Origin: Chiloscyllium plagiosum
Lineage: Eukaryota
Direction: 5' to 3'
NCBI RefSeq assembly: GCF_004010195.1
Contig: NC_057718.1
Coordinates: 98,022,876 to 98,086,875, forward strand
DNA: 64,000 nucleotides
A model generated the notes under the pieces. It was not told the origin of the DNA, did no database searches, and saw only the letters and a program-made list of their open reading frames with translations. A program made the position numbers and the translations under genes. The stretch's first letter is position 1. Each line of letters opens with the position of its first letter. Below, piece by piece: positions 1,520 to 61,591 of this stretch.

Positions 1520-1622
1520 GCTTCTGAAACAAAATCAGAAATTGCATGAAAAGCTCAGCAGGTCTGGCAGCATCTATGGAGAGAAATCAGAGTTAACGTT
1601 TTGGGTTGAGTGATCCTCAGAA
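1520..1622 (-). mobile_element. PLE-terminal fragment, family C
   Basis: aaagctcagcaggtctggcagcatctatggagagaaatcagagttaacgtt recurs at about 18350, 28270, 42865 and 63780. Confidence 0.65.
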
Positions 1623-2425: not shown

Positions 2426-2980
2426 TTCGATTTGAGTATTGTTGCATGTACCTAGGTACAGTGAAAAGTTTTGTTTTGCGTGCAGTACAGGCAGATCATA
2501 GCATACAAAGAGCATAGGGTGATTGGACAGAGCGAGGAATAAAATGTTAAAGCTGCAGAGAATATGCACAAAAGGCCAGATCGACATTAGATTGGAAATT
2601 TGCGAGGTCCATTCAGAAGTCGAATAACAGCAGGGAAGAAGGTGTTCTTGAGCCAGTTGGTACATGTGTTCAAGTTTCCATGTCTTCTGCCTGACCGGAG
2701 AGGTTGGATGAGATGATAACCGATGTTGGCTGCCTTTCCGAGGCAGAGAGAATTGTAGATGGAGTCAGTGGTTGGCTTGTGTGATGAACTGGGCTGTGTA
2801 CACAACTCTCTGTAGTTTCTTACGGTCCTGGTCAGTGCAGTTGCCACACCAGGTCCATGATGCACCCAGATAGAATGCTTTCTGTGGTGCATCTGGAAAG
2901 GTTGGTGAGGATCTGTGCGTACATGCCAAATGAGATGTTGAGAAGAGAGATTGTTGTGCCTTCTTGACCATCCCATCAAT
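2426..2980 (-). mobile_element. Rex1/Babar-like LINE 3' fragment
   Basis: Minus-strand peptide ...SGRRHGNLNTCTNWLKNTFFPAVIRLLN resembles the Rex1 C-terminus; related to 61053-61300. Confidence 0.7.
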
Positions 2981-3016
2981 GCTGTGGTTCTGTTCGCCAA
3001 GCTGGAAGTTTTTGTT

Positions 3017-3056
3017 GCAAACGTTTCGTCCCCTGGCTAGGCGACATCATCAATGC
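3017..3056 (-). ncRNA. Minimal hammerhead ribozyme-like motif (family D)
   Basis: GCA-UUGAUGA-U-GUCGCCU-AGCC-AGGGGAC-GAAA-CGUU-UGC; first core base is U instead of C. Confidence 0.7.
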
Positions 3057-3864
3057 TTGGGAGCCTCCTGCGAAGCGCTTCTTTGATGTTTCCTCTGGTG
3101 TTTATAGTGGTCTGTCCCTGCCGCTTCCGGTTGTCAGTTTCAGCTGTCCGCTGTAGTGGTTGGTATATTGGGTCCAGGTCGATGTGTTTGTTGATGGAGT
3201 TTGTGGATGAATGCCATGCCTCTAGGAATTCCCTGGCTGTTCTCTCTCTGGCTTGCCCTATGATAGTAGTGTTGTCCCAGTCGAATTCATGTTGCTTGTT
3301 GTCTGCGTGTGTGGCTACTAAAGATAGCTGGTCGTGTCGTTTCATGGCTAGTTGATGTTCATGTATGCGGATTGTTAGCTGTCTTCCTGTTTGTCCTATA
3401 TAGTGTTTTGTACAGTCCTTGCATGGTATTTTGTACACTACATTAGTTTTGCTCATGTTGGGTATCGGGTCCTTCGTTCTGGTGAGTTGTTGTCTGAGCG
3501 TGGCTGTTGGTTTGTGTGCCGTTATGAGTCCTAGGGGTCGCAGTAGTCTGGCTGTCAGTTCCGAGATGCTCCTGATGTATGGTAGTGTGGCTAGTCCTTT
3601 TGGTTGTGGTATGTCCTCGTTCCGTGGTCTTTCTCTTAGGCATCTGTTGATGAAGTTGCGCGGGTATCCGTTTTTGGCGAATACCTTGTGTTCCTCTTCT
3701 TCTTTTTGCAGTTCTGGTGTACTGCAGTGTGTAGTGGCCCTTTTGAATAGTGTCCTGATGCAGCTTCGTTTGTGTGTATTGGGGTGGTTACTTTCATAGT
3801 TTAGGACTTGGTCTGTGTGTGTGGCTTTCCTGTATACCCTTGTAGTATGCAGGTTCCAGAACAC
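3037..3864 (-). CDS. PLE polyprotein C-terminus: RT thumb/linker plus GIY-YIG endonuclease (5'-truncated, start codon not genuine)
   Basis: VYRKATHTDQVLNYESNHP, LPYI, NVVYKIPCKDCTKHYIGQTGRQLTIRIHEH, REFLEAWH..SIN; uninterrupted frame. Confidence 0.92.
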   Translation of the reverse strand: MFWNLHTTRVYRKATHTDQVLNYESNHPNTHKRSCIRTLFKRATTHCSTPELQKEEEEHKVFAKNGYPRNFINRCLRERPRNEDIPQPKGLATLPYIRSISELTARLLRPLGLITAHKPTATLRQQLTRTKDPIPNMSKTNVVYKIPCKDCTKHYIGQTGRQLTIRIHEHQLAMKRHDQLSLVATHADNKQHEFDWDNTTIIGQARERTAREFLEAWHSSTNSINKHIDLDPIYQPLQRTAETDNRKRQGQTTINTRGNIKEALRRRLPSIDDVA

Positions 3865-3896: not shown

Positions 3897-4028
3897 AAGG
3901 TATGCAGGTTAGGGTAGATTGGCCATGGGGAACTGGGTTACAGGAATAGGGATGGGTCTGGGAGGGATGCCCTTTGAAGGGTCAGTGTGGACTCGGGCCA
4001 AATGGCTTGCTTCCATGCTGTAGGAATT
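3897..4028 (+). mobile_element. HE1 SINE 3' half
   Basis: atgcaggttagg...gggtcagtgtggactcgggccaaatggc..ccatgctgtagg. Confidence 0.8.
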
Positions 4029-4454
4029 CAAGGACCTGTAATGTTTTACAGTTGTCCTTCGAAAGATTTGGGAAGTTAAATGTTCCCGCTCCGACTGACA
4101 ACCCAGTGTAATGACCTAGATGTGTAATTTACTGTCGGAGCTCAATCTAAATGAAAAATTCCCAGTTGTAGAAAAAGATGAGGAACATTTTCAACTTCTA
4201 ATCCTGCCTTTGGTGAAGACTGGCATCAGAGTGATCATAAATTTGTGAGACGAGGTGTAACCATCATTGTATCTCCTTTTTCTCTCTATTTCACTGGGAA
4301 GAATTTGTAGGGAAGTCAGAGGGCCAGATGGCTTAACCCTTCGCCTCCACCCACTCCCAACAAAAAACCTTTAAAGTCAGAGAATGAAGAAAAGCGTCTC
4401 AGCCATGCAATGATAACGTGCAGCACTTGGTGTCAACAAGAGCGGAGTGAGACT

Positions 4455-5212
4455 CATAGAGTCACAGTCATAGAGTCATACAGCACGGAAGCAGACCCTT
4501 CGGTCCAACCAGTCCATGCCAACCATAATCCCAAACTAAACTCGTCCCACCTTTGCCTATATCCCTCCAAACCTTTCCTATTCGTGTACTCACCTAAATG
4601 CCTTTTAAATATTGTAACTGTACCTGCACATCTAACACTTCCTCTGGATGGGGCTCAGTGGTTAACACAGCATTAAGGACAACAATCTGTATGGAGTTTT
4701 CCCATTTCCCTCGTGTCTGCGTGGGTTTCCTCTCAGCGTTCCGGTTTCCAAAGACGTGCAGGTTAGGTGGGTTGGCCATGGGAAATGCAGGGTTACAGGG
4801 GTAGGCTAGGGGGTGGCATGCTCTTCAGAGGGTCAGTGTGGACTCGATGGGATGAATGATCTGCTTCCACACTGTAGGGATTCTGTGATATTCGTTCCTC
4901 ACACGAACCACTCCCTATGTTAAAAACGTTGTCGCTCGTGTCTTCTTTAAATCTTTCTCCTTTCATCTTAAAAATATGTCCCCTCGACTTGATATCCCCC
5001 ACCCCAGGGAAAAGACACCTGCCGTTCACCCTATCTGTACCCCTCATGATTTTATAAACCTCCTCAAGGTTACCCGTCAACTTCCTAAGCTCCAGTGAAA
5101 AATTCCCAACCTCTCCAGCCTCTCCTCGCAACTCAAACCCTCCAATCCCAGCAGCATGCCTGGTCAATCTTTTCTGAACCTTCTCCAACTTAATGATACC
5201 CTTCCTATAACT
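4455..5212 (-). mobile_element. HER1/CR1 LINE 3' fragment with nested HE1 SINE (+, about 4648-4888)
   Basis: Peptide YRKGIIKLEKVQKRLTR...VYKIMRGTDRV; (catagagt)n tail. Confidence 0.88.
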
Positions 5213-5399
5213 CGTCTTCAGGAAGACACCCACTTTCTGCTGGTCCTATCCTCTGGTGGGCAAAAGTCCCAATAAAGAGCTTGCAGCTGGACACAGGAAG
5301 CCCCAATGGCTCCTGGACCCCAGCAGATCAGGGGCAGTGAGTGGGTTGGATTCTAGTGCCTTTCAGAGGTGGTGTTGCAGTGCTTGAACTGGGCGAGTG

Positions 5400-5700
5400 A
5401 CGCAGAGCCCCAGGCTAACGCTGTAGCAGGATGTGGGTTCGAACCCACTTTGGCGGATGATGAAATTTGAATGCAATCAAATTTGGAATTTAAAGGGGAT
5501 ATGAAAAGCTAGTCTAAATAGTGACCACATCATTGCTGTCAATTGTTGTTCAAAACCTGCCCGGATCCCCCAGGGAAGGAAATCTGCTGTCACTCTCCAC
5601 GTTTTAGCCTACCCATGTCTCCAGACCCATAGACATGGGGTTGACTCAGAAATGGCTGACAGAGCTGATCAGTTGGGGCAGGCAACAAATTCAGGCCTTC
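5400..5700 (+). mobile_element. Second tRNA-type SINE family (cagacccacagcaatg / gggcaataaatgc tail)
   Basis: Homologous to 6815-7148, 26255-26590, 28405-28990 and 44040-44360. Confidence 0.6.
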
Positions 5701-5742
5701 CCTGCAAAAAAAGGAAGAAGGGTGGACTTTGAAGTCATGGAA

Positions 5743-5812
5743 GGGGAGAGGAAATGCTATTTGGGGGAGGGGAAATGCTATTTGTGGGAGGGGAAATGCT
5801 ATTTGTGGGGGA
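5743..5812. repeat. 21-bp tandem repeat x3 (ggggaggggaaatgctatttg)
   Basis: Direct inspection. Confidence 0.9.
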
Positions 5813-5974
5813 GGGGCGGCTGAGGCCTTGTCACCAAAGTGCAAAGGTCACCTCCTTGAAGACAGTACCCGCTTCCCATCCCCTCCTTGTGAAATCCGAT
5901 TTTAAAATAAAAGCGAGCTGCCCACTTCCACTTGCCTGCCGTACTAATAATTTCATGGATTGGACACTCCTGGT

Positions 5975-6075
5975 CACATTCCTGCTGAAGAGCTTATGCC
6001 TGAACCGTTGACTCTGCTGCTCTATAGATGCTGCCCGACCTGTTGTGCTTTCCCAGAGCCACACTTTTCGACTCT
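5975..6075 (+). mobile_element. Degenerate family A PLE end
   Basis: attcctgctgaagagcttatgcctgaaccgttgactct...gatgctgcccgacctg. Confidence 0.75.
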
Positions 6076-6489
6076 ATTATTGGTGTAGGTTGAATTTTTA
6101 TAAGCTCGAGTGACCCTTAGTTATTTATTTAAACCAGGGTACCCGACCTAATGTCAGCTGCCCATCTCATCATATCGCCTCCCACACCACCTTCCCAGTA
6201 TCCCATATGATGGTGGTTAGACTGGGATGGTGGTGAGGGGTGGGGGTCACACCACAAACATCCAGCCCCTTGTGTCTGCCAGGTGTGTAAGGCTCTCTAA
6301 CTGCGGTTTTACAGCCTTGTTTACAAACTCCCAATTACAGTAGCTGCAGCTATCTGCCAAGACGAATTACAATGAATCAAGGATGGGGTTGTGTTGCGAA
6401 TTAATGCACAAACGGAGATGGATGTTGTCTCTGCTGTTGTTGTTGCATTGCCATGGGGTTTGGTTAGGGGGGGGGGGGGGGGGGGGGGG

Positions 6490-6652
6490 GAGGGAGCTGG
6501 TTTGCAATGCAGACTGAGCTGATTCAGTTCCTGCACTGGGTAGGGTCACCATCCTTCTCAACCTCTTTCCCCTTGCCTGAGGCGTGGTGACCCTCAGGTT
6601 AAACTCACTGCCAACTCCACTCTCGTGAGAGAGTGGGACTGTGGTGACTTCC
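6490..6652 (+). mobile_element. Third tRNA-type SINE family (gcctgagg.gtggtgaccctcaggttaaa)
   Basis: Homologous to 32985-33075/33595-33700 and to 51810-51960 (-). Confidence 0.6.
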
Positions 6653-6814
6653 GTTGCATTAGCCAGTTGCGTGTTACACTTTGAAGAAGAAAGCATGCAG
6701 CCTTAATCACAGGCAAAAACAAATCATCCCATCAGCTTTACAGCGAGCTGTATGAAACCAGCTTGTGTGACTTCAGATGCAGATTATATAAGTAGGCCAC
6801 GTGTCCTAGTTTTC

Positions 6815-7148
6815 CTAGTGGTATTATCACTGGATTGCTCATCCAGAGACCCAGGTAACGTCCTGGGGTCTCAGGTTCAAATCCTGGAATTTGAATCCAA
6901 TAACAAAAATAACTAGAGTTAAGATTCTACTGATGACCATGAATCTATTGCCGATTGTTGGGAAAAACCCATCCGTTTAACTAATGTCCCTTAGGGAAGG
7001 AAACAGCCATCCTTACCTGGTGTCGCCTACATGTGACTCCAGACCCACAGCAATGTGGTTGAACTCTTAAATGCCTTCTGGTTAATTAGGGATGGGCAAT
7101 AAATGCGGGTCTGGCCAGTGACACCCTCATCGTGTGAATGAGTAAAAG
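6815..7148 (+). mobile_element. Second tRNA-type SINE family, near full length
   Basis: tagtggtattatcactgga...ggttcaaatcc...agggaaggaaa...gggcaataaatgc. Confidence 0.7.
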
Positions 7149-7465
7149 CCTGATCGCAAAATGCTGTGCAAGCCACAAATAACATTTTGAAAATCTTTTG
7201 TAATAGTAAATTGGAATGTACAGGCTCTCTACTCAGCTGGATAAGGACCTCTGTTTGTTACGCTTAGTTTTAAAAGCCGGCTGCTAAGTTGACTTGGAGG
7301 GGCAAAGCAGGCATTACTGCAACCATCACAGGGCCTGTTAAATCTGGTGCAAGAAGCCCAGATTGTATGTTACCTGTCGCTGCTGTTGAGTTTTGTGAGC
7401 AGAGAACCATTCCCCATTGATGTACTAAAGCCTGTTCGATGGTGAATTACAGGAGAGTGACCTGA

Positions 7466-7770
7466 TTAGATTAGGCCCCCTACAGTATGGACACAGGCCC
7501 TTCAGCCCAACAAGTCCACACCAACCCTTCAAAGAGTAACCCATCCAGACCCATTCCTCTATTCTGTATTTACTGTACTAATGCACCTAACACTAGCATG
7601 GCCAATTCACCTAGCCTGCACATGTTTGGACTGTGGGAGGAAACCGCAGTACACCCACGCAGACACGGGAGAACATGCAAACCCCACACAGACAATGGTT
7701 GGAGGCTGGAATCAAACCCAGTTCCCTGGCGCTGTGAGGCAGCAGTGCTAACCACTGAGTCACCGTGCCG
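7466..7770 (-). mobile_element. HE1 SINE
   Basis: Reverse complement of cggcacggtg..cagtggttagcactgctgcctcacagc head; ctaat tail. Confidence 0.9.
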
Positions 7771-8564
7771 TCCTCTAAGTTTTATTCATGTAGGCCTAGT
7801 TTATGTCTGTTTTGCCAGTGGCATAGTCAGCTGCATAGCGAATGTGGCTCGTCAGGAGATACCTCCCCTGTCCTGGTTGGCAAACGGAGGAGAATGCTGT
7901 ACATTGAACAAAGCAGCTTTGGGATCAGGCATTGAGATGTTACTTCAGTACCCCTCTCAGAAATGATGCCCCATTGATTGTGGGTGTATGTGGTGATTGG
8001 ACTGTTGACTTCTTCTAATCAGTGAGCACAGTTGCAGGAATCTAATTTACAGACGACCAGAGGAAGTCAACAAGCATGGAAAAATTACAGATCGTAGATC
8101 AAAATTTGTTGAACTCTGTGTGATACCTCCTTATCCTTTATCTCAATATGCTGAGACCTCACATGGGCAGACTCAGAGTGACAGTCACGCACTCCATTGG
8201 CACATCCTGCTTTCTAGTTTGGCTGCTGTTGTGAGGAGCCCTGTCAGTGTTCATTGCAGCTTTTTGCACACAATCTGTTGAAGATTTGAAGATAGCTGGG
8301 ACAGATAATCTTCCTATCCATCTGGAACTGCATGCACTTAGGCTGCTGGGCTGTCATTCCTTTTGTAAATTGGGCCGGACAATTATAAGGACTCTGGGCT
8401 GGGTCTTGATGTGTTATCTTTTCAAAGCCGTGCGATAATGTGGATTTTTTTTCCCCCTCGTTGGTTTACTTTCGGAACAATCTTTGCAGCACAATGTCAG
8501 TCCAGCATTGCCAGTAGCACGTAAGCACAGCAGCAGTTTGTAAGTGTCCCTCGAAAAGCACAAC

Positions 8565-8890
8565 ACTGGAAATTTGAAATTAGAACAAACGGATGCTGGG
8601 ACTGCTCAGCAGGTCAGGCAGCATCTGTGGAAAGAGACACAGGGTCGGCCTTTCTGGTCACCGTTAAAAATCACACAACACCAGGTTATCGAACAACAGG
8701 TTTATTTGGAAGCATGAGCTTTCTGAGCGTTGCTCCTTCATCAGGCAGCTGTGGAGCAGCGCTCCTAAAGCTAGTGCTTCCAAATAAACCTGTTGGACTA
8801 TAACCTGGTGTTGTGGGACTTTTAACGTTGTTCACCCCAGTCCAACACCAGCACCTCCACATCGTTTCTGGTCACTGACCTTTCATCAGG
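8565..8890. mobile_element. Family C PLE end with nested family B fold-back insertion (8662-8864)
   Basis: 11-bp TSD tttctggtcac at 8651-8661 and 8865-8875; inverted arms. Confidence 0.85.
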
Positions 8891-9897
8891 TATGATCCTC
8901 ACTCATTTCTGGTGCCACAGAGGTTGAGTGTTGTGGCTGTTAGACTCTTGAAGGCTTTCCTGTGTGGAAATGGACAAACACATGCTTGGAGATGTGTTGA
9001 GATGTTGGTCGGATGTGCAAATTGATAACCTTGGAATGGGACTCACACCCAGAGTTTCTGTTTGAGAGGCAACTACACTGCCCCTTTTATCATAACTTCT
9101 CCATTTCTTGTCTTTTAAGTCTTAAATTTGACTCTGAAAATGATGCCTTAATATATTTTTTTCAATACTGCACCAATCGCATGTTGTTAGTGACAAGATT
9201 ATTCCCCCAGCGGAGAGAGTGGAATGGTGATACATTGCTATTTTCATGTCCTGCTGGGTCATCAGATCTCCCACACACTGTAATTGCGAGCTTTGTCGAG
9301 TTGGCATGTTGTACATTTCTCTGCATTTCTCATTACCTCGTGGTAGAGTTGCTCCTAATTAGTGCATACTCATATGCTATTCCACAGTGATAATGCTGGC
9401 AAACTGTAGGGAGGAAATAAAAGTGTGTCCCTGAGTGCCTTTAATCAGAAATCGAATGCTCATCTGGAAGCCTATAATCATGCATTGTGTTGATAAATAA
9501 AATATATTTTTAGAGCCATTATACCACACTGTTCTATTTGTGTCACAATCAGCACTGATGGAAGCACTGTGCAGAATTGTACCCAAAAAAACCAGTACAT
9601 TAGGCAGCAGTTTGTACTAGCTATTCATGAATGTGCATGTCAAGTTATAAATAGTAGCACTTAGTGAGGGTTGCTGGTCTTTTAACATGTTGCGAGCTAA
9701 CATGACTGAGCAATTTTGATCAATGTTTGTCTGGGAACCTTTTTTTGCTAATAAAGATGAAATGGCGATTTCACGTCATTACTTCTGCAAGCCGAGCTCA
9801 ATCTTAATCTGTGGGAACTATCTCTGTCTTTGAATGCATTATGAGGCAGATAGTAATTGCGAAGACCTTTGGAATCTTTGCATTCCTGATGCCGAAG

Positions 9898-10176: not shown

Positions 10177-10885
10177 TCAAATGCTGGAGATTATAGCGGG
10201 TCAGGCAGCATCCATGGAGATGGAATAAACTAACATTTTGAGTCTAGATGACTCTTCATCAGAGCTGGCGTGACTTCATCTAGACTCGGAACCTTAGTTG
10301 CTGTCTCTCCATGGATGCTGTCGAGAGTGTGGTGCTGGTCAGGCAATATCTGAGGAGCAGGAGTTTGCACATTCTCCCCGTGTCTGCATGGGTTTCCTCC
10401 AGGTGCTCCGGTTTCCTCCCACAACCCAAGGATGTGCAGATTAGGTGAATTGGCCATGCTAAATTGCCCGTAGTGTTAGGTGCATTAGTCAGAGGGAAAT
10501 GGGTCTGGGTGGGTTATTCTTCAGAGGGTTGGTGTGGACTGGTTGGGTCAAAGGGCCTGTTTCCACACTGTAGGGAATCGAATCTAATCTAATCGACAGT
10601 TCAGGCGTAAGCCCTTCATCAGGAATGGGCCTGGAATTCCTGATGAAGGGCTTTTGCCCGAAACGTTGACAGTCCTGCTGCTCGGATGCTGTGCTTTTCC
10701 AGCATCTTGGTTTGAAAAATGTGATGCTGGAAAAACACAGCAGTCCAGGCAGCAACCGAGGAGCAGGAGAATTGACATTTCGGGCATAAGCCCTTCTTCA
10801 GGAATCTTCCAGCATCTGCAGACCTCACTTTCTCCTGTCCATGGATTTTGCCTGACATGCTGTGATCTCCAGCAGTGGTTGTTTT
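10177..10885. mobile_element. Nested cluster: family C fold-back, family A copies and HE1 SINE (10361-10592, +)
   Basis: Several hammerhead cores on both strands (10228-10265 -, 10636-10670 +, 10770-10805 -). Confidence 0.8.
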
Positions 10886-16780: not shown

Positions 16781-17258
16781 CAGGGAAGCTCTTTCTCTCG
16801 TGTGTGATTGGAAGTTTCATATGTTGCTATCACAGTAAAATAGACGATAGTTATTGACCCATTTCTGACAGGTTGCTCCCTTTTGCAAAGACTTGAAATG
16901 TGTGAAATTATTTGACACTGGCATGTCTGGATGTGCTCAGACTTCCACTCGCTTTATCTGATGTGGATAGGGAGAACAGACAGGAATAGTGTGCTGCTGG
17001 TGCTGTGTCTACACTAGATGCATCCCTTGCCACCCTGGAGTGTTTATTACTAACACGGTGCCAGCATGTGTGTAAAAGCCAGAGCAGAACTCACTGCGAT
17101 TGGTCTATCCACCAGCAATGTCTGTTTACTTTGCAAGCAGAAAGGTGAACAAAGACTGTTGACAGTGTCTATTTACAGGGTCAGCAGGCAGAACTTATGA
17201 CTTGGAGGACCTACTCCCAAAGAGTGTGACCTCTCCTGTGAAATGGAGGAAGTGGAGG

Positions 17259-17672
17259 ATAATCTTCCGCCTTGGGACCCTCCATCCACACGGCATCAAT
17301 GTGGATTCCACCAGTTTCCTCGTCTCCCCTCCCCTCACATTATCCGAGATCCAACTCTCCAACTCGGCACCACCCTCTTGAACTAACCTCCCTGTCCATC
17401 TTCCTTCTCACCTATCCCCTCCACCCTCCTCTCTGACCTATCACCATCACATCCCACCTTCATCTACCTATGGCATTCTGAGCTACCTTCTCCCAGCCCC
17501 ATCCCCGACCCATTTATCTCTCAGCCCCCTTGGGCACCCCACATTCCTGATGAAGGGTTTATGCCTGAAACATCAACTCTCCTGCTCCTCGGATGCTGCC
17601 TGACCTGCTGTGCTTTTCCAGTACCACAGTTTTTGATTCTGATCTCCAGCACCTGCAGTCCTCACTTTCTCC
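17259..17672 (+). mobile_element. PLE 3' end (family A): ORF C-terminus, pyrimidine-rich UTR and hammerhead (17543-17578)
   Basis: Translates IIFRLGTLHPHGINVDSTSF (PLE GIY-YIG C-terminal L.T..P.G.N motif); ends ctcactttctcc. Confidence 0.85.
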
Positions 17673-18204: not shown

Positions 18205-18900
18205 TTTTTTGAGTCACAGGGTTCCAGGTTCACTCCAGGGCGTGAGCATGAAAACAAAATGAAGTATTGAAAGAGGGCGATACTGTTAGAGGTGCCATAT
18301 TTTGGACGCAATCTGATGTAATGATCTCATGAACAAAAACGGAAGTTACTGGAAAAGCTCAGCAGGTCAGGTAGCATCTGTGAAGAGAAATCAACATTAA
18401 TATTTCGCATCTGATGACCCTTCTTTAGAATTGGATTCGGAATGTTAACTCTGATTTCTCTCCACAGATGCTGCAAGACCTGCTGAGCTTTTCCAGCAGT
18501 TTCTAATTCGCAGCATCTGCAGTTCTTCTGTTGTTTTTTAACGATCCCGAGATACTGTTTTGAAGAAAATCAAGGGAGTTGTCCCAAGTGCCTTGGCCAA
18601 TATTTATCCTTCTAAGTTAAAAATCACACAACACTATAACCTGGTGTTGTGTGATTTTTAACTTTGTACACCCCAGTCCAACACCGGCATCTCCAAATCA
18701 TTTATCCTTCACTCAGTGTTACGAAAACACAGTGTGCGGTTATTATCAGGTTGCGGCATGTGGGGGGTTTGCTGTGTATGAATGGTGTTTCATGCATTAC
18801 AACAACAACTGCACTTCAGAAGTATGTTATTGTCTGTAAAACTCTTCAAAACCTATGGTGGTTATGCAAAAGCTATATAAATGCAAATCTTTATTTTATC
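18205..18900 (+). mobile_element. DeuSINE (SacSINE1/AmnSINE1-like) with nested family C (about 18332-18540) and family B (18613-18699) PLE insertions
   Basis: gaagaa..caagggagtt.tcc..gtgccttggccaatatttatcc...cattacaaca...cacttca.aagta...gctatataaatgcaa; family B TSD atttatccttc at 18602-18612 and 18700-18710. Confidence 0.75.
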
Positions 18901-19312: not shown

Positions 19313-19654
19313 TAACACCTAGGGCCTTGATGTCTCCTTGTGTGATTGCCATGTCCTTATTCAAACTATTCAAGCATGTCTTTAATTCGTCTCATGATGT
19401 CTTCTGTCTTGTGATAGTGGTGTAAACATTTCACTATTTGCTAACAAAGTGTGTGCGTGTTTGTGTGTTGTGTGTGTGCACGCGTGTGTATGTCTGTGTG
19501 TGTATGTATGTGCTGTACGATTTACATGTGATTCATGGACAATTTCTTCCAGGGTCAATAGCCTTTTCACATTGACTCATATCCTCAGTGCACCGATACA
19601 GACTGATGAGTGAATGTATGAGAAAGGAATGGGACTAGGCTATTTAGTCCCTTA

Positions 19655-20065
19655 TTCTGGATCAGTTGTGCTGGAAGAGCACAGCAATTCAGGCAGCATC
19701 CGACGAGCAGCAAAATCGACGTTTCGGGCAAAAGCCCTTCATCAGGAATAAAGGCAGAGAGCCTGAAGCATGGAGGGATAAACTAGAGGAGGGTGGGGGT
19801 GGGGAGAAAGTAGCATAGAGTACAATAGGTGAGTGGGGGAGGAGATGAAGGTGATAGGTCAGGGAGGAGAAGGTGGAGTGGATAGGTGGAAAAAAGAGCT
19901 AGGCAGGTCTCCATGCTTCAGGCTCTCTGCCTTTATTCCTGATGAAGGGCTTTTGCCCGAAACGTCGATTTTGCTGCTCGTCGGATGCTGCCTGAATTGC
20001 TGTGCTCTTCCAGCACCATTAATCCAGAATCTGGTTTCCAGCATCTGCAGTCATTGTTTTTACCT
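19655..20065. mobile_element. Young fold-back family A PLE insertion with hammerheads on both strands
   Basis: 15-bp TSD ctatttagtccctta at 19640-19654 and 20066-20080; near-perfect arms of over 100 bp. Confidence 0.92.
19935..19970 (+). ncRNA. Minimal hammerhead ribozyme motif (family A)
   Basis: AUUC-CUGAUGA-A-GGGC-UUUU-GCCC-GAAA-CGUC-GAUU. Confidence 0.8.
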
Positions 20066-24173: not shown

Positions 24174-24644
24174 CTACAGTGTGGAAGCAGGCCATTTGGT
24201 CCATCAGACCTACACCAACCCTCCCAAGTGCAGTTCACCCCGACCCATCCCAATAACACTGCCTTTCCCATAGCCACCCCATCTACCCTACTCATCCCTG
24301 AACTCTATGGGGAAATTAGCGTGGCCAATCCACCAAACCTGCACACCTTTGGACTGTGGGAGGAAGCTAGAGCACCTGGAGGAAACCCATGCAGACACGG
24401 AGAGAATGTGCAAACTCCACACAGTCAGCCGAGGCTGGAATCTAACCCAGGTCCCTAGCGCTGTGAGGCAGCAGTGCTAACCACTGTGCTACCCATTTAC
24501 GAGCAGTTAAACATCCTGGGGCAAAAGGGAGTGGAGGTGGGGCAAGCAAAGAAACCAAAGATGTGCCTAGAGTGGGTGCTGTTGGCTGAGAAAGAGAGAA
24601 AGAAACTGAAACAATGAAAAAAGTGAGGAATAAAATGGGGACAA

Positions 24645-25060
24645 AGTTTGACAGTCTGAAATTATTGAACTCACTGTGCAGTTCAGAAGGCTCTGAAGTG
24701 TCAAAGTGAAAGATGAGATGCTGTTCCTGATGCTCACACGAAGCCTCACTGGAACAGTGCAGTCAGCTGAGGACAGAAATGTCAATGTGAGAACAAGGCA
24801 GAGAATTAAACGGGCACGGCACTGGAAACCTGGTGTTCGGCTTGTGGACAGAGTGAAGCTGTTCTGCACAGTGGTAACCCAATCTGTGTGTGGTGGCTCC
24901 AATGTAGAGGAAGCCCCGTCCATCAGCTGTGAAGGCAGTGTTATCGGTTGTAAGGTGTACAAATAAATTGATGCATCACCTGCAAGGAGTGTGTGGGACA
25001 AGAGAAGAAATGCAAGGACAGTTTGCGTCTGCATGCAGGAAAGGGGTAGTGTTTTTTAGC
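24645..25060 (-). pseudogene. Decayed PLE GIY-YIG domain
   Basis: My minus-strand translation: FLYIGATTHRLGYHCAEQLHSVHK..PVPCPFNSLPCSHIDISVLS*LHCSSE..EQHLIFHFDTSEPSELHSEFNNFR. Confidence 0.8.
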
Positions 25061-27794: not shown

Positions 27795-28058
27795 AGTGTG
27801 TGTATATATCTCTGTATGTTTGTGTCCGTGTGTGTGTGCGCACACGTGTGTATGACTCTGTGTGTCTGTGTCTGTGCATGCATGTGTCTCTGCGAATGTG
27901 TGTGCCTCTGTGTGCATGAGTGTGTGAATGTATCTGTACGTATGTATGTGGCTGTGTGCATGTGTTTATGTGCATGTGTGTGTGTGCCCTCATGTGTGAA
28001 TGTGTGTCTGTGTATTTGTCTGCATGCATGTATGTGTGTGTGTGTATAAACGCACGTG
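27795..28058. repeat. Degenerate (TG)n microsatellite
   Basis: Direct inspection. Confidence 0.92.
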
Positions 28059-28404
28059 CTAAAGAATGCAACAATGTGGCAGTACCTTGAGTTTTGAGTT
28101 AGCACTAATGTGCTAACATTTGTCATGCTAAGAGAAAGTATGGATGCTGAGGGTATGCAGCCATCCACTAACAGAGCAAGTGAGCAGCCCTGAGGTGCAC
28201 CCTGGTCCAATCCGTGAGCCCATCATCCCACCTGTTAGTTAGCAGAAACAGAAGCAGAAGTTCCTGGAAAAACTCAGCAGGTCTGGCAGCATCGGTGGAG
28301 AGCAATCAGAGTTAACCTTTCGGGATGTAGTGACGGATTAGTTAGCAGTGTTGGTTCTATGCTGTCACAGACTCTGAAACTGTGTAGAATGGTGTTTTGA
28401 TTGT

Positions 28405-35145: not shown

Positions 35146-35629
35146 CATGCCCTTAGGTCACATACTGTGATACAGTGATAATATCATGACCCTGTCTCTT
35201 AAAGATATACTGCCATACTAATGAAAGTATATAACCCAGTGACTACTTTTTTTCCCTTGTCACATTATGAGTGTGTGTTTCTGACTGTAATGTGACGTCA
35301 TGTCATGTGCATAGATAGATCACAGCGACCATAATTAATGGCTGCTCCTGCATTGGGACTCTGTTTTTTCGCAGTAGTGTAAGGCTCAGAAGTATCACAT
35401 TCAGATGGAGCAATTACTTGTGACCTGATGCTGTTATAAAATATGCTTGGATGCGGCAAACTCCCACAGTGCAAGTTGTGACTGAGTGACACACATGAAA
35501 GCAGTGCCGATGAAACTCTGCATCTGTGGAGCGAAATTGTTTCAAGTTCAGTGACTCTTCTTCAGAACTGATTATTGAACCGCTTTTTTATTTCTATATT
35601 GTTCATTGTAAAACTTCTTCCAGTTCCAA

Positions 35630-47511: not shown

Positions 47512-47761
47512 TATGGAGATATCAGTGTTGGACTGGGGTGTACAAAGTTAAAAATCACACAACACCAGGTTATAATCCAACAGGTTTAATTGGAAGCACT
47601 AGCTTTCGGAGCGCTGCTCCTTCACCAGGTGATTGTGATGAAGGAGCAGCGCTCCTTTGATGAAGGATCCACCTGATGAAGGAGCAGCGCTCCGAAAGCT
47701 AGTGCTTCCAATTAAACCTGTTGGATTATAACCTGGTGTTTTTAACCTTTTTAACTTTGTC
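47512..47761. mobile_element. Family B PLE fold-back insertion
   Basis: Inverted arms; hammerhead cores on both strands. Confidence 0.88.
47670..47704 (+). ncRNA. Minimal hammerhead motif (family B)
   Basis: CAC-CUGAUGA-A-GGAGC-AGC-GCUCC-GAAA-GCUA-GUG. Confidence 0.8.
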
Positions 47762-50309: not shown

Positions 50310-50720
50310 TGTGTGTGTGTGTGTACGTACGCATGAGTGTGTGTCTGTATGTATGTTGTGTGTGGGGTGTGTGTGTGATGTCTGTGTATATCGTGTGTGT
50401 GTGATGTGTATGTTGTGTGTGTGTGTTTGTGTATGTGTGTGTGCTTGCATGTGTGTGTGTGGTGTGTGATGTCTCTGTGTGTATGTTGTCTGTGATGTCT
50501 GTGTGTGTGTGCGTGTGTGTGTGTTTGTATGTATGTGTGAGGTGTGTGATGTCTGTGTGTGTGTGCGCGTGTGTGTGTTTGTATGTATGTGTGAGGTGTG
50601 TGATGTCTGTGTGTGTGTATGTTGTGTGTGATGTCTGTGTGTGTGTGCTTGCATGTGTGTTTGTGTGTATGTGTGTGTGTTTGTGTTTATGTGTATGTGT
50701 GCGTGAGTGTGTGTGTCTCT
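50310..50720. repeat. Compound (TG)n microsatellite with tgatgtctg units
   Basis: Direct inspection. Confidence 0.95.
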
Positions 50721-58431: not shown

Positions 58432-58652
58432 GCGAGCTTTGAGAAGAGTTGTAGCTCAGGTTGAGATTCTGGATGTAGGTTTGCTCACTGAGCTGGAAGG
58501 TTCGTTTTCAGACATTTCATCATCATACGAGGTAACATCTTCAGTGAGCTTCCGAATGAAGGCTTCACCAGAGGCTCAATTGAAGATGTTAACTAGTATG
58601 ATGATGAAATGCCTCAATATGAACCTTCCAGCTCAGTGAGCAAACCTACATC
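58432..58652. mobile_element. Family D PLE fold-back insertion with degenerate hammerheads
   Basis: 14-bp TSD cagat(ct/cc)agtaaca at 58418-58431 and 58653-58666; homologous to 2980-3070. Confidence 0.85.
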
Positions 58653-58669
58653 CAGATCCAGTAACATTT

Positions 58670-59725: not shown

Positions 59726-60638
59726 GTGACACAGTCCTAGCTCAGGAAATGCCAGTGTAACGCGGGGGGGGCAACTTGTTCTGCTCACTTAAGTGCGATT
59801 CAAATTGTGTGACTATTAATCCCTGCCAGAAAGGAGTTGGGGGGCCTTGCAAATAGATGTCCAAAGGTGTCAGCTGACATCCGACTGGCATCTTTGTATC
59901 AATCTGCCCTTTTAAAAATGCAGTGTCCTGAACCAGCCACAAGCAGGACCTCGTAAAGGTTAGTTAAAAGAACACTCCCCTGCCATCATGCCAAACACTG
60001 TGACAGTTTCTGAGACGTTTTGCTGAGAATCTGTAGCAGTGCTGGGAACCTAAGTGCTTGGAATAGCTTTACAGTTGCCCAGGGGAGCCCTTCTTTCTGT
60101 GACAGGATCCCTCCATGCACTCTCGCTGTTGGGGGATGAATGGGCATTGGAGACTGGAGGAAATAGACAACACAGACCCCTCTCGGTGTGCTCCACTATC
60201 CTGTGATAGAGAAGGTGAAGCTTAAATTGCGGAGGAGTATAAAATCAGGCCTTGCTTCCCGAGATGAGAGTCACGCAGGTTTGTGTCTTCTCCTTTCAGA
60301 AACAGTCGCTGAGCTGTTTTGCCTGTGGCTACTGTCAGGTTGCTGAAGGGAAGGACATCAAGAGTCAGTATGCAGCCTGTGCTCATGTTAAGAAGATGAC
60401 TGACATTGTATGATTCTCGCATGCCTCGTGGACAAACTCAAGTGATAGGATACCCTTTTGGGATTTATAAAGCCTTTAAGCCATCCTTTAGGTAAAACAT
60501 CAGGCACCATGTACTTCCCTTTAAGCAAAACCATGTGAATCTCCTCAGGATTCTGGTTGTTCAGCCAGTGTGTGCTGACTGCCATGCCCTTTGGTACGGC
60601 TGTGATTTGGTTTGATTTGATTTATTATTGTCACATGT

Positions 60639-61039
60639 TCGAGGAGAAAGTGAGGTCTGCAGATGCTGGAGATCAAAGTTGAAACTTTATTGCTGGAACA
60701 GCACAGCAGGTCAGGCAGCATCCAGGGAACAGGAGATTCGACGTTTCGGGCACAGGCCCTTCTTCAGGAAATGTGATAGGTGGAAAGAGGTCAAGGTGAG
60801 GGTGATAGGTCGGAGTAGGATGGTCCATCCTACTCCGACCTATCACCCTCACCTTGACCTCTTTCCACCTATCACATTTCCAACGCCCCTCCTCCAAGTC
60901 CCTCTTCCCTACCTTTTATCTTCTCCTGCTGAACACTCTCTGCTCATTCCTGAAGAAGGGCCTGTGCCCGAAACGTCGAATCTCCTGTTCCCTGGATGCT
61001 GCCTGACCTGCTGTGCTGTTCCAGCAATAAAGTTTCAAC
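60639..61039. mobile_element. Very young family A PLE double fold-back inserted in a Rex1-like LINE tail (60604-61300, -)
   Basis: 13-bp TSD tattgtcacatgt at 60626-60638 and 61040-61052; host peptide LLLGRRYKSLKRCTDRFKNSFFP. Confidence 0.92.
60946..60981 (+). ncRNA. Minimal hammerhead motif (family A, best-preserved copy)
   Basis: AUUC-CUGAAGA-A-GGGC-CUGU-GCCC-GAAA-CGUC-GAAU. Confidence 0.82.
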
Positions 61040-61591
61040 TATTGTCACATGTACCAAGACACACTGAAACGCATTGTTTTGTGTGCTGTCCAGGCAGATC
61101 AGACCTTACATAAGAACACCAGGGTAAAAGAACAGAATGCAAAATATAATGTTACAGCTGCAGAGAAGGTGCGGAGAAATATCAACTCTAATGTATGAGA
61201 GGTTCATTCATAAACTTGACAAAATCAGGGAAGAAGCTGTTCTTGAATCTGTCGGTACATCTTTTCAAACTCTTGTATCTTCTGCCCAGCAGGAGAGAAT
61301 ATAACTGGAATGGATGTGTGCCCACTTTCCTGGCAGCTGCTATGACAGCTCTACTTTGCAGCTTTTTTCTGTTTCCTTTCTCCTCTTCCCCTCCTCCCTC
61401 CAGCCCCGTCCACACACACGCTTTTTTTGACCCTTCCTAGCCAGTAGAAGGCTGGAAGATTAATCTCATAAACTTGACAACAGCAGGGAAGAAGCAGATC
61501 TTGAATCTGTCGATACTTTCCTGAGGGCACTTTCCTGAACAGTTGTCACCAAATGACTCTACATTGGACAGGGCACCAGTAGCACCCATTA

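Follow-up and report, generated by a model that had tools for sequence, protein, structure and literature searches.

Minimal hammerhead folds in the terminal repeats of shark PLEs: truncated, mostly head-to-head insertions and what their junctions suggest

The motifs dispersed through this DNA are very probably minimal hammerhead (min-HHR) folds in the terminal repeats of PLEs that encode a reverse transcriptase (RT) and a GIY-YIG endonuclease (EN). They occur in truncated, mostly head-to-head insertions that decay neutrally and are likely silent. Two rules describe the junctions of these insertions, one for their paired 3' ends and one for their 5' ends, and from them we infer how the elements may insert. 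Positions are those of the window, the whole stretch of 64,000 nucleotides of Chiloscyllium plagiosum DNA that was analysed; other loci carry L numbers.

Hammerhead Motifs in the Window

The features on which the analysis rests are as follows.

60946..60981, + strand: family A minimal type I hammerhead, stem I 4 bp, stem II 4 bp, ACGU palindrome
60824..61040, + strand: direct arm of a Neptune-like PLE, its final 217 nt, terminating at the "short" end
60641..60823, - strand: inverted arm with an internal deletion, terminating in a "tail" of ~35 nt (about 60641-60676)
60736..60771, - strand: second family A hammerhead, within the inverted arm and absent from the first-pass annotation
60626..60638, + strand: 13-bp target-site duplication, left copy
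61040..61052, + strand: 13-bp target-site duplication, right copy
19654..20060: older family A inverted insertion with hammerheads at 19935-19970 (+) and 19714-19749 (-), short and tail ends, duplication present
10591..10671: family A head-to-head pair, 10636-10671 (+, stem I 2 bp) and 10591-10626 (-, decayed)
47669..47705, + strand: family B hammerhead, AGCU palindrome, predicted cut after 47701
47538-47637: inverted partner arm of the family B hammerhead at 47669
10201..10320: family C inverted pair, with a motif at 10228-10266 (-) that is without G12 and C15.2
2980..3834, - strand: family D, 5'-truncated Poseidon-like PLE, hammerhead at 3016-3057
58432..58656: family D2 inverted insertion, hammerhead at 58507-58548 (-) with the palindrome lost, tail and short ends, 14-bp duplication
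1541-1610 (-), 18346-18521, 28261-28330 (-) and 35535-35569 (-), with L182:7945-7982 elsewhere: family E copies

The stretch from 60641 to 61040, lying between the 13-bp duplications, is a single insertion event. Its direct hammerhead is predicted to cut after 60977 and belongs to a young subfamily of family A, whose 40 scored copies among 832 candidates are 99-100% identical. Rfam microRNA matches at 60777-60871 merely reflect the palindrome of the two arms; elsewhere in the window, degenerate long CA/TG microsatellite arrays (325-1219, 27861-28047 and 50310-50716) draw spurious matches of the same kind.

The first-pass annotation had named seven motif copies, all of which are present where it placed them, and both of its predicted cleavage bases, 60977 and 47701, were reproduced. 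It had assigned them to the minimal type I PLE hammerhead with one extra base and a 4-nt palindrome, and the core, stems and palindrome are all found. The CUGANGA and GAAA core and an NUH cleavage triplet are present, broken in the window copies of families C and D, as are the extra base after A9 and the palindrome that replaces stem III, ACGU in A and D and AGCU in B. Several of the named copies are damaged. Those at 19935 and 10636 do belong to family A, with stem I reduced to 2 bp. The family C motif is there, but the window copy has lost G12 and C15.2, both CpG changes, while other C copies retain both. Of the two family D copies, the one at 3017 has U in place of C3 (C3U), where most genome copies have C, and the one at 58508 has lost its palindrome. 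The estimate of over 20 copies in 64 kb is true of remnants, which number 39, but only seven motifs retain both an intact core and the palindrome.

A strict descriptor (stem I, CUGANGA, one extra base, stem II, GAAA, four bases) finds five matches in the window, against a mean of 0.015 and a maximum of 1 in 200 dinucleotide shuffles; with the palindrome required, it finds four against none. A covariance model (R1), built on a MAFFT alignment with the family B rows one column off and therefore under-scoring B, gives 18 window matches. The Rfam hammerhead models are absent from the 55 matches at E values up to 10. When one natural copy from each of seven families is aligned in register, 53 of 56 stem cells are paired, against a shuffle mean of 30.4 and 0 of 20,000 shuffles, and the MAFFT alignment, with its B rows one column out of register, holds 40 double-sided stem changes against 13.1 in shuffles; these shuffle figures should not be read as probabilities, since the descriptor had a part in choosing the representatives and the families are related to one another. 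Subfamilies of a given family differ from each other at N7, loop II, N17 and outer stem I, and within families non-CpG core positions differ in 1-6% of cells. The proposal that stems I and II covary around a conserved core thus stands between families (the 53 of 56 cells) and fails among the copies within one family. The motifs themselves are confirmed as real. A further, decayed hammerhead family, E, has a GUU/AAC stem I and a stem II of 5 bp, and its downstream sequence is common to A and C.

Parent Elements

The parent of family A is seen at L061, where a 749-codon open frame contains RVT_1, which passes the cut-off (E 1.2e-8), then a CX3CXXC linker, and GIY-YIG, which narrowly misses the cut-off (E 2.9e-4). 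A motif identical to that at 60946..60981, together with the tail, lies 178 nt past this frame. Longer family A copies extend upstream into the GIY-YIG frame, and their 5' ends are spread without a break into the ORF. Among named relatives of the RT, shark and ray proteins come nearest, with 65-82% identity; the remaining relatives, unnamed or from marine invertebrates, stand at about 50%. The search for a full-length family A source element found none, its 5' walk ending in a Pro-rich repeat. The Pro/Thr-rich tandem repeat at the N-terminus of the family A ORF varies between copies (L149:1150-1300, L168:120-310), and an inverted arm at L033:206-1012 holds ~8 tandem copies of a 102-bp segment from the terminal repeat of family A.

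Family B motifs have a decayed RT-thumb, CX3CXXC linker and GIY-YIG domain upstream in L066, L083 and L070, the parent frame being absent in two of the five loci tested. The window also holds older, decayed, A-like fragments of the GIY-YIG end, at 17172-17378 (+), upstream of a hammerhead at 17543, and at 24637-24915 (-).

Family D lies directly behind a linker-less GIY-YIG endonuclease frame in the window (3519-3040, -), whose stop codon falls within loop II of the hammerhead at 3016-3057, and RT motifs of this family are found in L102 and L106. Four long family D "open frames" proved to be products of N gaps. In 33 of the 36 copies with a tail, the frame that starts at the family D ATG reads through the tail without a stop. 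The family D ribozyme overlaps two codons, the stop of the upstream ORF in loop II and, in the core, the ATG at which the next unit starts, which places three constraints on about 40 bases.

One family D locus carries its hammerheads in tandem. L255:1611-3346 (G000:C1:33540000-33545500) contains two same-strand hammerheads 1.19 kb apart, with the RT internally deleted and the ORF N-terminus kept; its order is an inverted copy with tail, a ribozyme, the ORF from the core ATG, the internal deletion, the EN, a second ribozyme and a short end. This partial tandem of pseudo-LTR layout is the sole true head-to-tail tandem found (tandem in 0 of 5 same-strand close A pairs and 1 of 2 close D pairs) and offers a natural substrate for testing dimer cleavage.

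A cysteine linker between RT and EN is present in A (CNRRRCNTC) and B (CHGRCCKTC) and absent in D. A CX2-5CXXC linker with a C-terminal GIY-YIG has been described as marking the Neptune clade, Poseidon being without the linker (PMC8557442). By this motif rather than by a tree, A and B appear Neptune-like and D Poseidon-like; Nematis shares the linker. The first-pass annotation had regarded these motifs as non-autonomous families. Identical motifs sit right behind RT and GIY-YIG frames, so A, B and D are instead the 5'-truncated ends of RT + GIY-YIG elements. Family C, seen as short pairs only, shares downstream sequence with A, and no parent ORF could be tied to its motif.

Junctions of the Insertions

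The first rule concerns the paired 3' ends. The hallmarks of EN+ PLEs are present: an inverted 5'-truncated copy, a tail of 30-40 nt and a target-site duplication, which is clean and 12-15 bp long around inverted insertions. Among 87 inverted insertions with such a duplication, 73 join one tail to one short end and none has two tails. The first set, covering all families (n = 67), comprises 58 tail/short, eight tail/unclear, one short/short and no tail/tail insertions, with tail/short in 15 of the 16 that form its unbiased subset. A held-out set (n = 20) comprises 15 tail/short, four tail/unclear and one unclear, with no short/short and no tail/tail.

The second rule concerns the 5' ends. Half of the held-out ends (20 of 40) fall at -35..-29 from the cut site, where stem I starts, a peak that had been noticed in reference copies and was put to the test on sequence not used before. 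At direct inverted junctions, a sample that favours short arms because the reference flanks are short, ends at the start of stem I account for 12 of 26 in A and 8 of 14 in B, and ends at the cut site for one each. Family D shows no such peak among its few, scattered ends. Genomic ends at -3..+3 were considered as a sign of cutting in the cell and are not enriched (2 of 40). Two other sources of the pile-up at -32 were discarded: a splice acceptor, as no AG precedes it in the family A reference copies printed, and stem I microhomology, as partner arms begin at many positions. The 5'-end position in family A has TCATTC, which we take to resemble the initiator consensus. In Drosophila, Penelope transcription starts in the terminal repeat, from an internal promoter (PMC2377424).

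Proposed Mechanism of Insertion

The two junction rules suggest priming on both target strands from an RNA that is not cleaved. Element RNA of families A and B would start at or just before stem I, as read from the DNA junctions. Nicks by the RT-endonuclease in the two target strands would lie about 13 bp apart. At two internal sites, separated by about 35 nt, one cDNA each would be primed, and both cDNAs would be extended towards the 5' end of the RNA, where they would be joined. Tiny, ribozyme-only insertions would come from priming at the 5' repeat-ORF junction, and longer, truncated ORF copies from priming at the 3' junction. The template would be mostly uncleaved, since the cDNAs continue beyond the cut site as far as stem I. 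Cleavage would be relevant only in rare tandem source elements, likely with the help of the element protein. The anole protein provides the precedent: it cuts and extends both strands, has two internal start sites and uses uncleaved RNA, and although cleavage needs the protein, insertion does not need cleavage (PMC11167929). Asymmetric two-strand priming of this kind, with a tail-site and a short-site cDNA copied from uncleaved RNA that starts at stem I, and with the ribozyme as a 5'-end switch that would shed a ~32-nt leader outside copying, is offered tentatively, at somewhat less than an even chance.

The motif might instead be a protein-binding, promoter or translation-start structure that undergoes no cleavage in the cell, with the pile-up of 5' ends marking a polymerase stop. 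Few genomic ends lie at the cut site, the start codon of family D is inside the core, and Naiad elements spread without canonical hammerheads (PMC8557442). RNA reads point the same way as a weak test: those of one polyA single-cell sample, about 2% of the run and from a library unsuited to cleavage ends, show no pile-up of read ends anywhere on the element, cut site included. A structure of this type would not account for the retention of every catalytic position and of the palindrome at 15.2/16.2 across Neptune-like and Poseidon-like families, and the anole motif does cleave with its protein, with rescue at C3-G8 (PMC11167929). A purely structural role is on balance rather unlikely, while still deserving serious weight.

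The main mechanistic rival is that the inverted insertions arise by self-priming or fold-back rather than by priming on two strands; self-priming with an antisense template was proposed by Arkhipova in 2013 (PMC3846280). Some junctions are palindromic, and a variant at a true polymorphic site is common to both arms in 10 of 11 family D pairs (14 of 15 close D pairs when read by eye). Because the arms mostly share a variant, one template lineage suffices, and the idea of two template RNAs per insertion was abandoned, as the two arms are in agreement up to about 200-290 nt from the ends. Truncation of one arm is independent of the other, however, and the short arm exceeds the tail arm in length in 4 of 8 D pairs and in 10 of 12 A pairs, the latter count being biased by several A loci picked with a query that itself stopped at the short end. 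Such pairs are beyond what a simple fold-back from the tail could make, and the clean 12-15 bp duplications at both ends also argue against it. Self-priming is accordingly judged improbable, and two-strand priming is retained as the working model.

Some arms do disagree. In four long-armed A insertions the arms differ at shared polymorphic sites; an apparent discordance of family D arms at two CpG sites was a query artefact. Long insertions contain assembly gaps and, probably, mosaic fills. L019 and L021 lie on different chromosomes with different duplications, yet their 1.37-kb interiors are 99.7% identical, odd junction included, which points to gap filling in the assembly.

State and Abundance of the Dispersed Copies

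The dispersed copies decay at the neutral rate and are probably silent. Of the copies scored, 10 of 52 in A and 7 of 32 in B no longer have G12, which lies in a CpG, and a free loop CpG is lost in 14 of 64; the match between the two rates makes the copies look dead. Same-family neighbours less than 300 bp apart in 380 kb of held-out sequence (n = 46) are head-to-head in 40 cases, tail-to-tail in four and direct in two. A read-through RNA of a head-to-head pair would carry one sense and one antisense motif, so that the ribozyme would pair with its own antisense. In predicted folds of read-through RNAs of the 60946 and 47670 insertions, the probability of stems I and II is 0, and stem I is not formed even in a lone arm with natural flanks. 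The energy model places the active dimer at -13.1 kcal/mol, two monomers at -14.2 and the inactive dimer at -18.3. Given the head-to-head arrangement of neighbours, dimer cleavage by dispersed copies appears doubtful. The many inverted pairs constitute a large potential source of dsRNA in read-through transcripts.

RNA reads align to the motif in both orientations and extend into many different flanks. At L061:6538, 163 reads run from the tail end into one flank with AATAAA (agreement 0.91), pointing to a single, strongly expressed transcript whose end lies just past a family A copy.

Short copies could also be independent non-autonomous families, SINE- or retrozyme-like, that are transcribed, cleaved as dimers and multiply themselves. 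Many insertions are indeed ribozyme and tail alone, such copies could be transcribed if they share the internal promoter of Drosophila Penelope (PMC2377424), family C is seen only as short pairs, and PLEs with retrozymes are reported in one chondrichthyan (bioRxiv 10.64898/2026.07.22.740005). The location of identical motifs right behind PLE ORFs in A, B and D, 5' ends continuous into the ORF, just two direct repeats among 46 close neighbours and no tandem array of the motif in the window leave this origin with only a slim chance, and the copies are best regarded as truncated ends of coding elements. Co-option of dispersed copies to cut or regulate host transcripts, for which their great abundance, the reads on both strands and the intronic position of 30% of whale shark PLEs (10.1101/443036) could be cited, is highly improbable in view of the neutral CpG decay at G12, the antisense arms that would sequester the fold and the lack of an identified host exon in the window (Pfam matched none of 123 frames, made up of 122 of the 328 candidates and the family D endonuclease frame).

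Across the genome, the exact, intact core is found at least 95,022 times: 69,636 in A, 13,741 in B and 11,645 in D, while each of the reversed controls gave 0. Twenty 10-kb stretches picked arbitrarily (191,896 bases) contain 56 remnants and 15 motifs that pass the descriptor; on the assumption that these stretches are typical, the genome would hold ~1.0 million remnants and ~278,000 motifs (156,000-458,000, Poisson). Reported motif counts are about 4,000 in coelacanth and 9,000 in Xenopus (PMC4209133), and a section title gives "up to 120 000" for axolotl (PMC7229834). What is added here is scale, at least 95,022 exact cores against 4,000-9,000 in coelacanth and frog, as obtained by a different counting method.

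Relation to Known Systems

Earlier work covers the ribozyme class, first described in print in 2014, as well as the inverted layout and the optional tail. The min-HHRs of metazoan PLEs described by Cervera and de la Pena in 2014 (PMC4209133) are type I without a real stem III, as here, and share the extra base between 9 and 10.1, G10.1-C11.1 and the palindromic 15.2/16.2. They too are mostly dispersed single copies, with some opposite-strand pairs 100-700 bp apart; the text and supplementary file 2 of that report name no shark. PLEs are expanded in whale shark introns (10.1101/443036). Truncation at the 5' end, an inverted 5' copy and a tail of 30-40 nt, as in A and B, are described for the Neptune clade by Craig in 2021 (PMC8557442).

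The closest likeness of family D is to the Anolis Poseidon element PAc of Frangieh 2024 (PMC11167929): in both the start ATG lies in the ribozyme, 28 nt before the cut in family D and 26 nt in PAc, the tail ends about 104 nt into the ORF, and there are two 3' ends about 35 nt apart. That paper states neither the rule of one tail and one short end nor the pile-up of 5' ends. Non-LTR retrozymes (PMC7229834; bioRxiv 10.64898/2026.07.22.740005) share type I hammerheads, occurrence in animal repeats and a link to PLEs. As described in these sources, they are non-coding head-to-tail tandems, whereas the copies here are head-to-head truncated ends of coding elements, with 2 of 46 close pairs direct and an ORF upstream.

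A published description of families A-D or of the two junction rules was absent among the matches listed; the families may already be named in Repbase, Dfam or the literature. The families of the window are mostly fossil, and the mechanistic gain is modest and testable. The junction rules bear on how PLEs insert and on whether the hammerhead cuts the template, and can be tested in the anole in vitro system or in long-read shark genomes. If the proposed mechanism is true, about a million ends in this genome would be a genome-scale record of PLE insertion.
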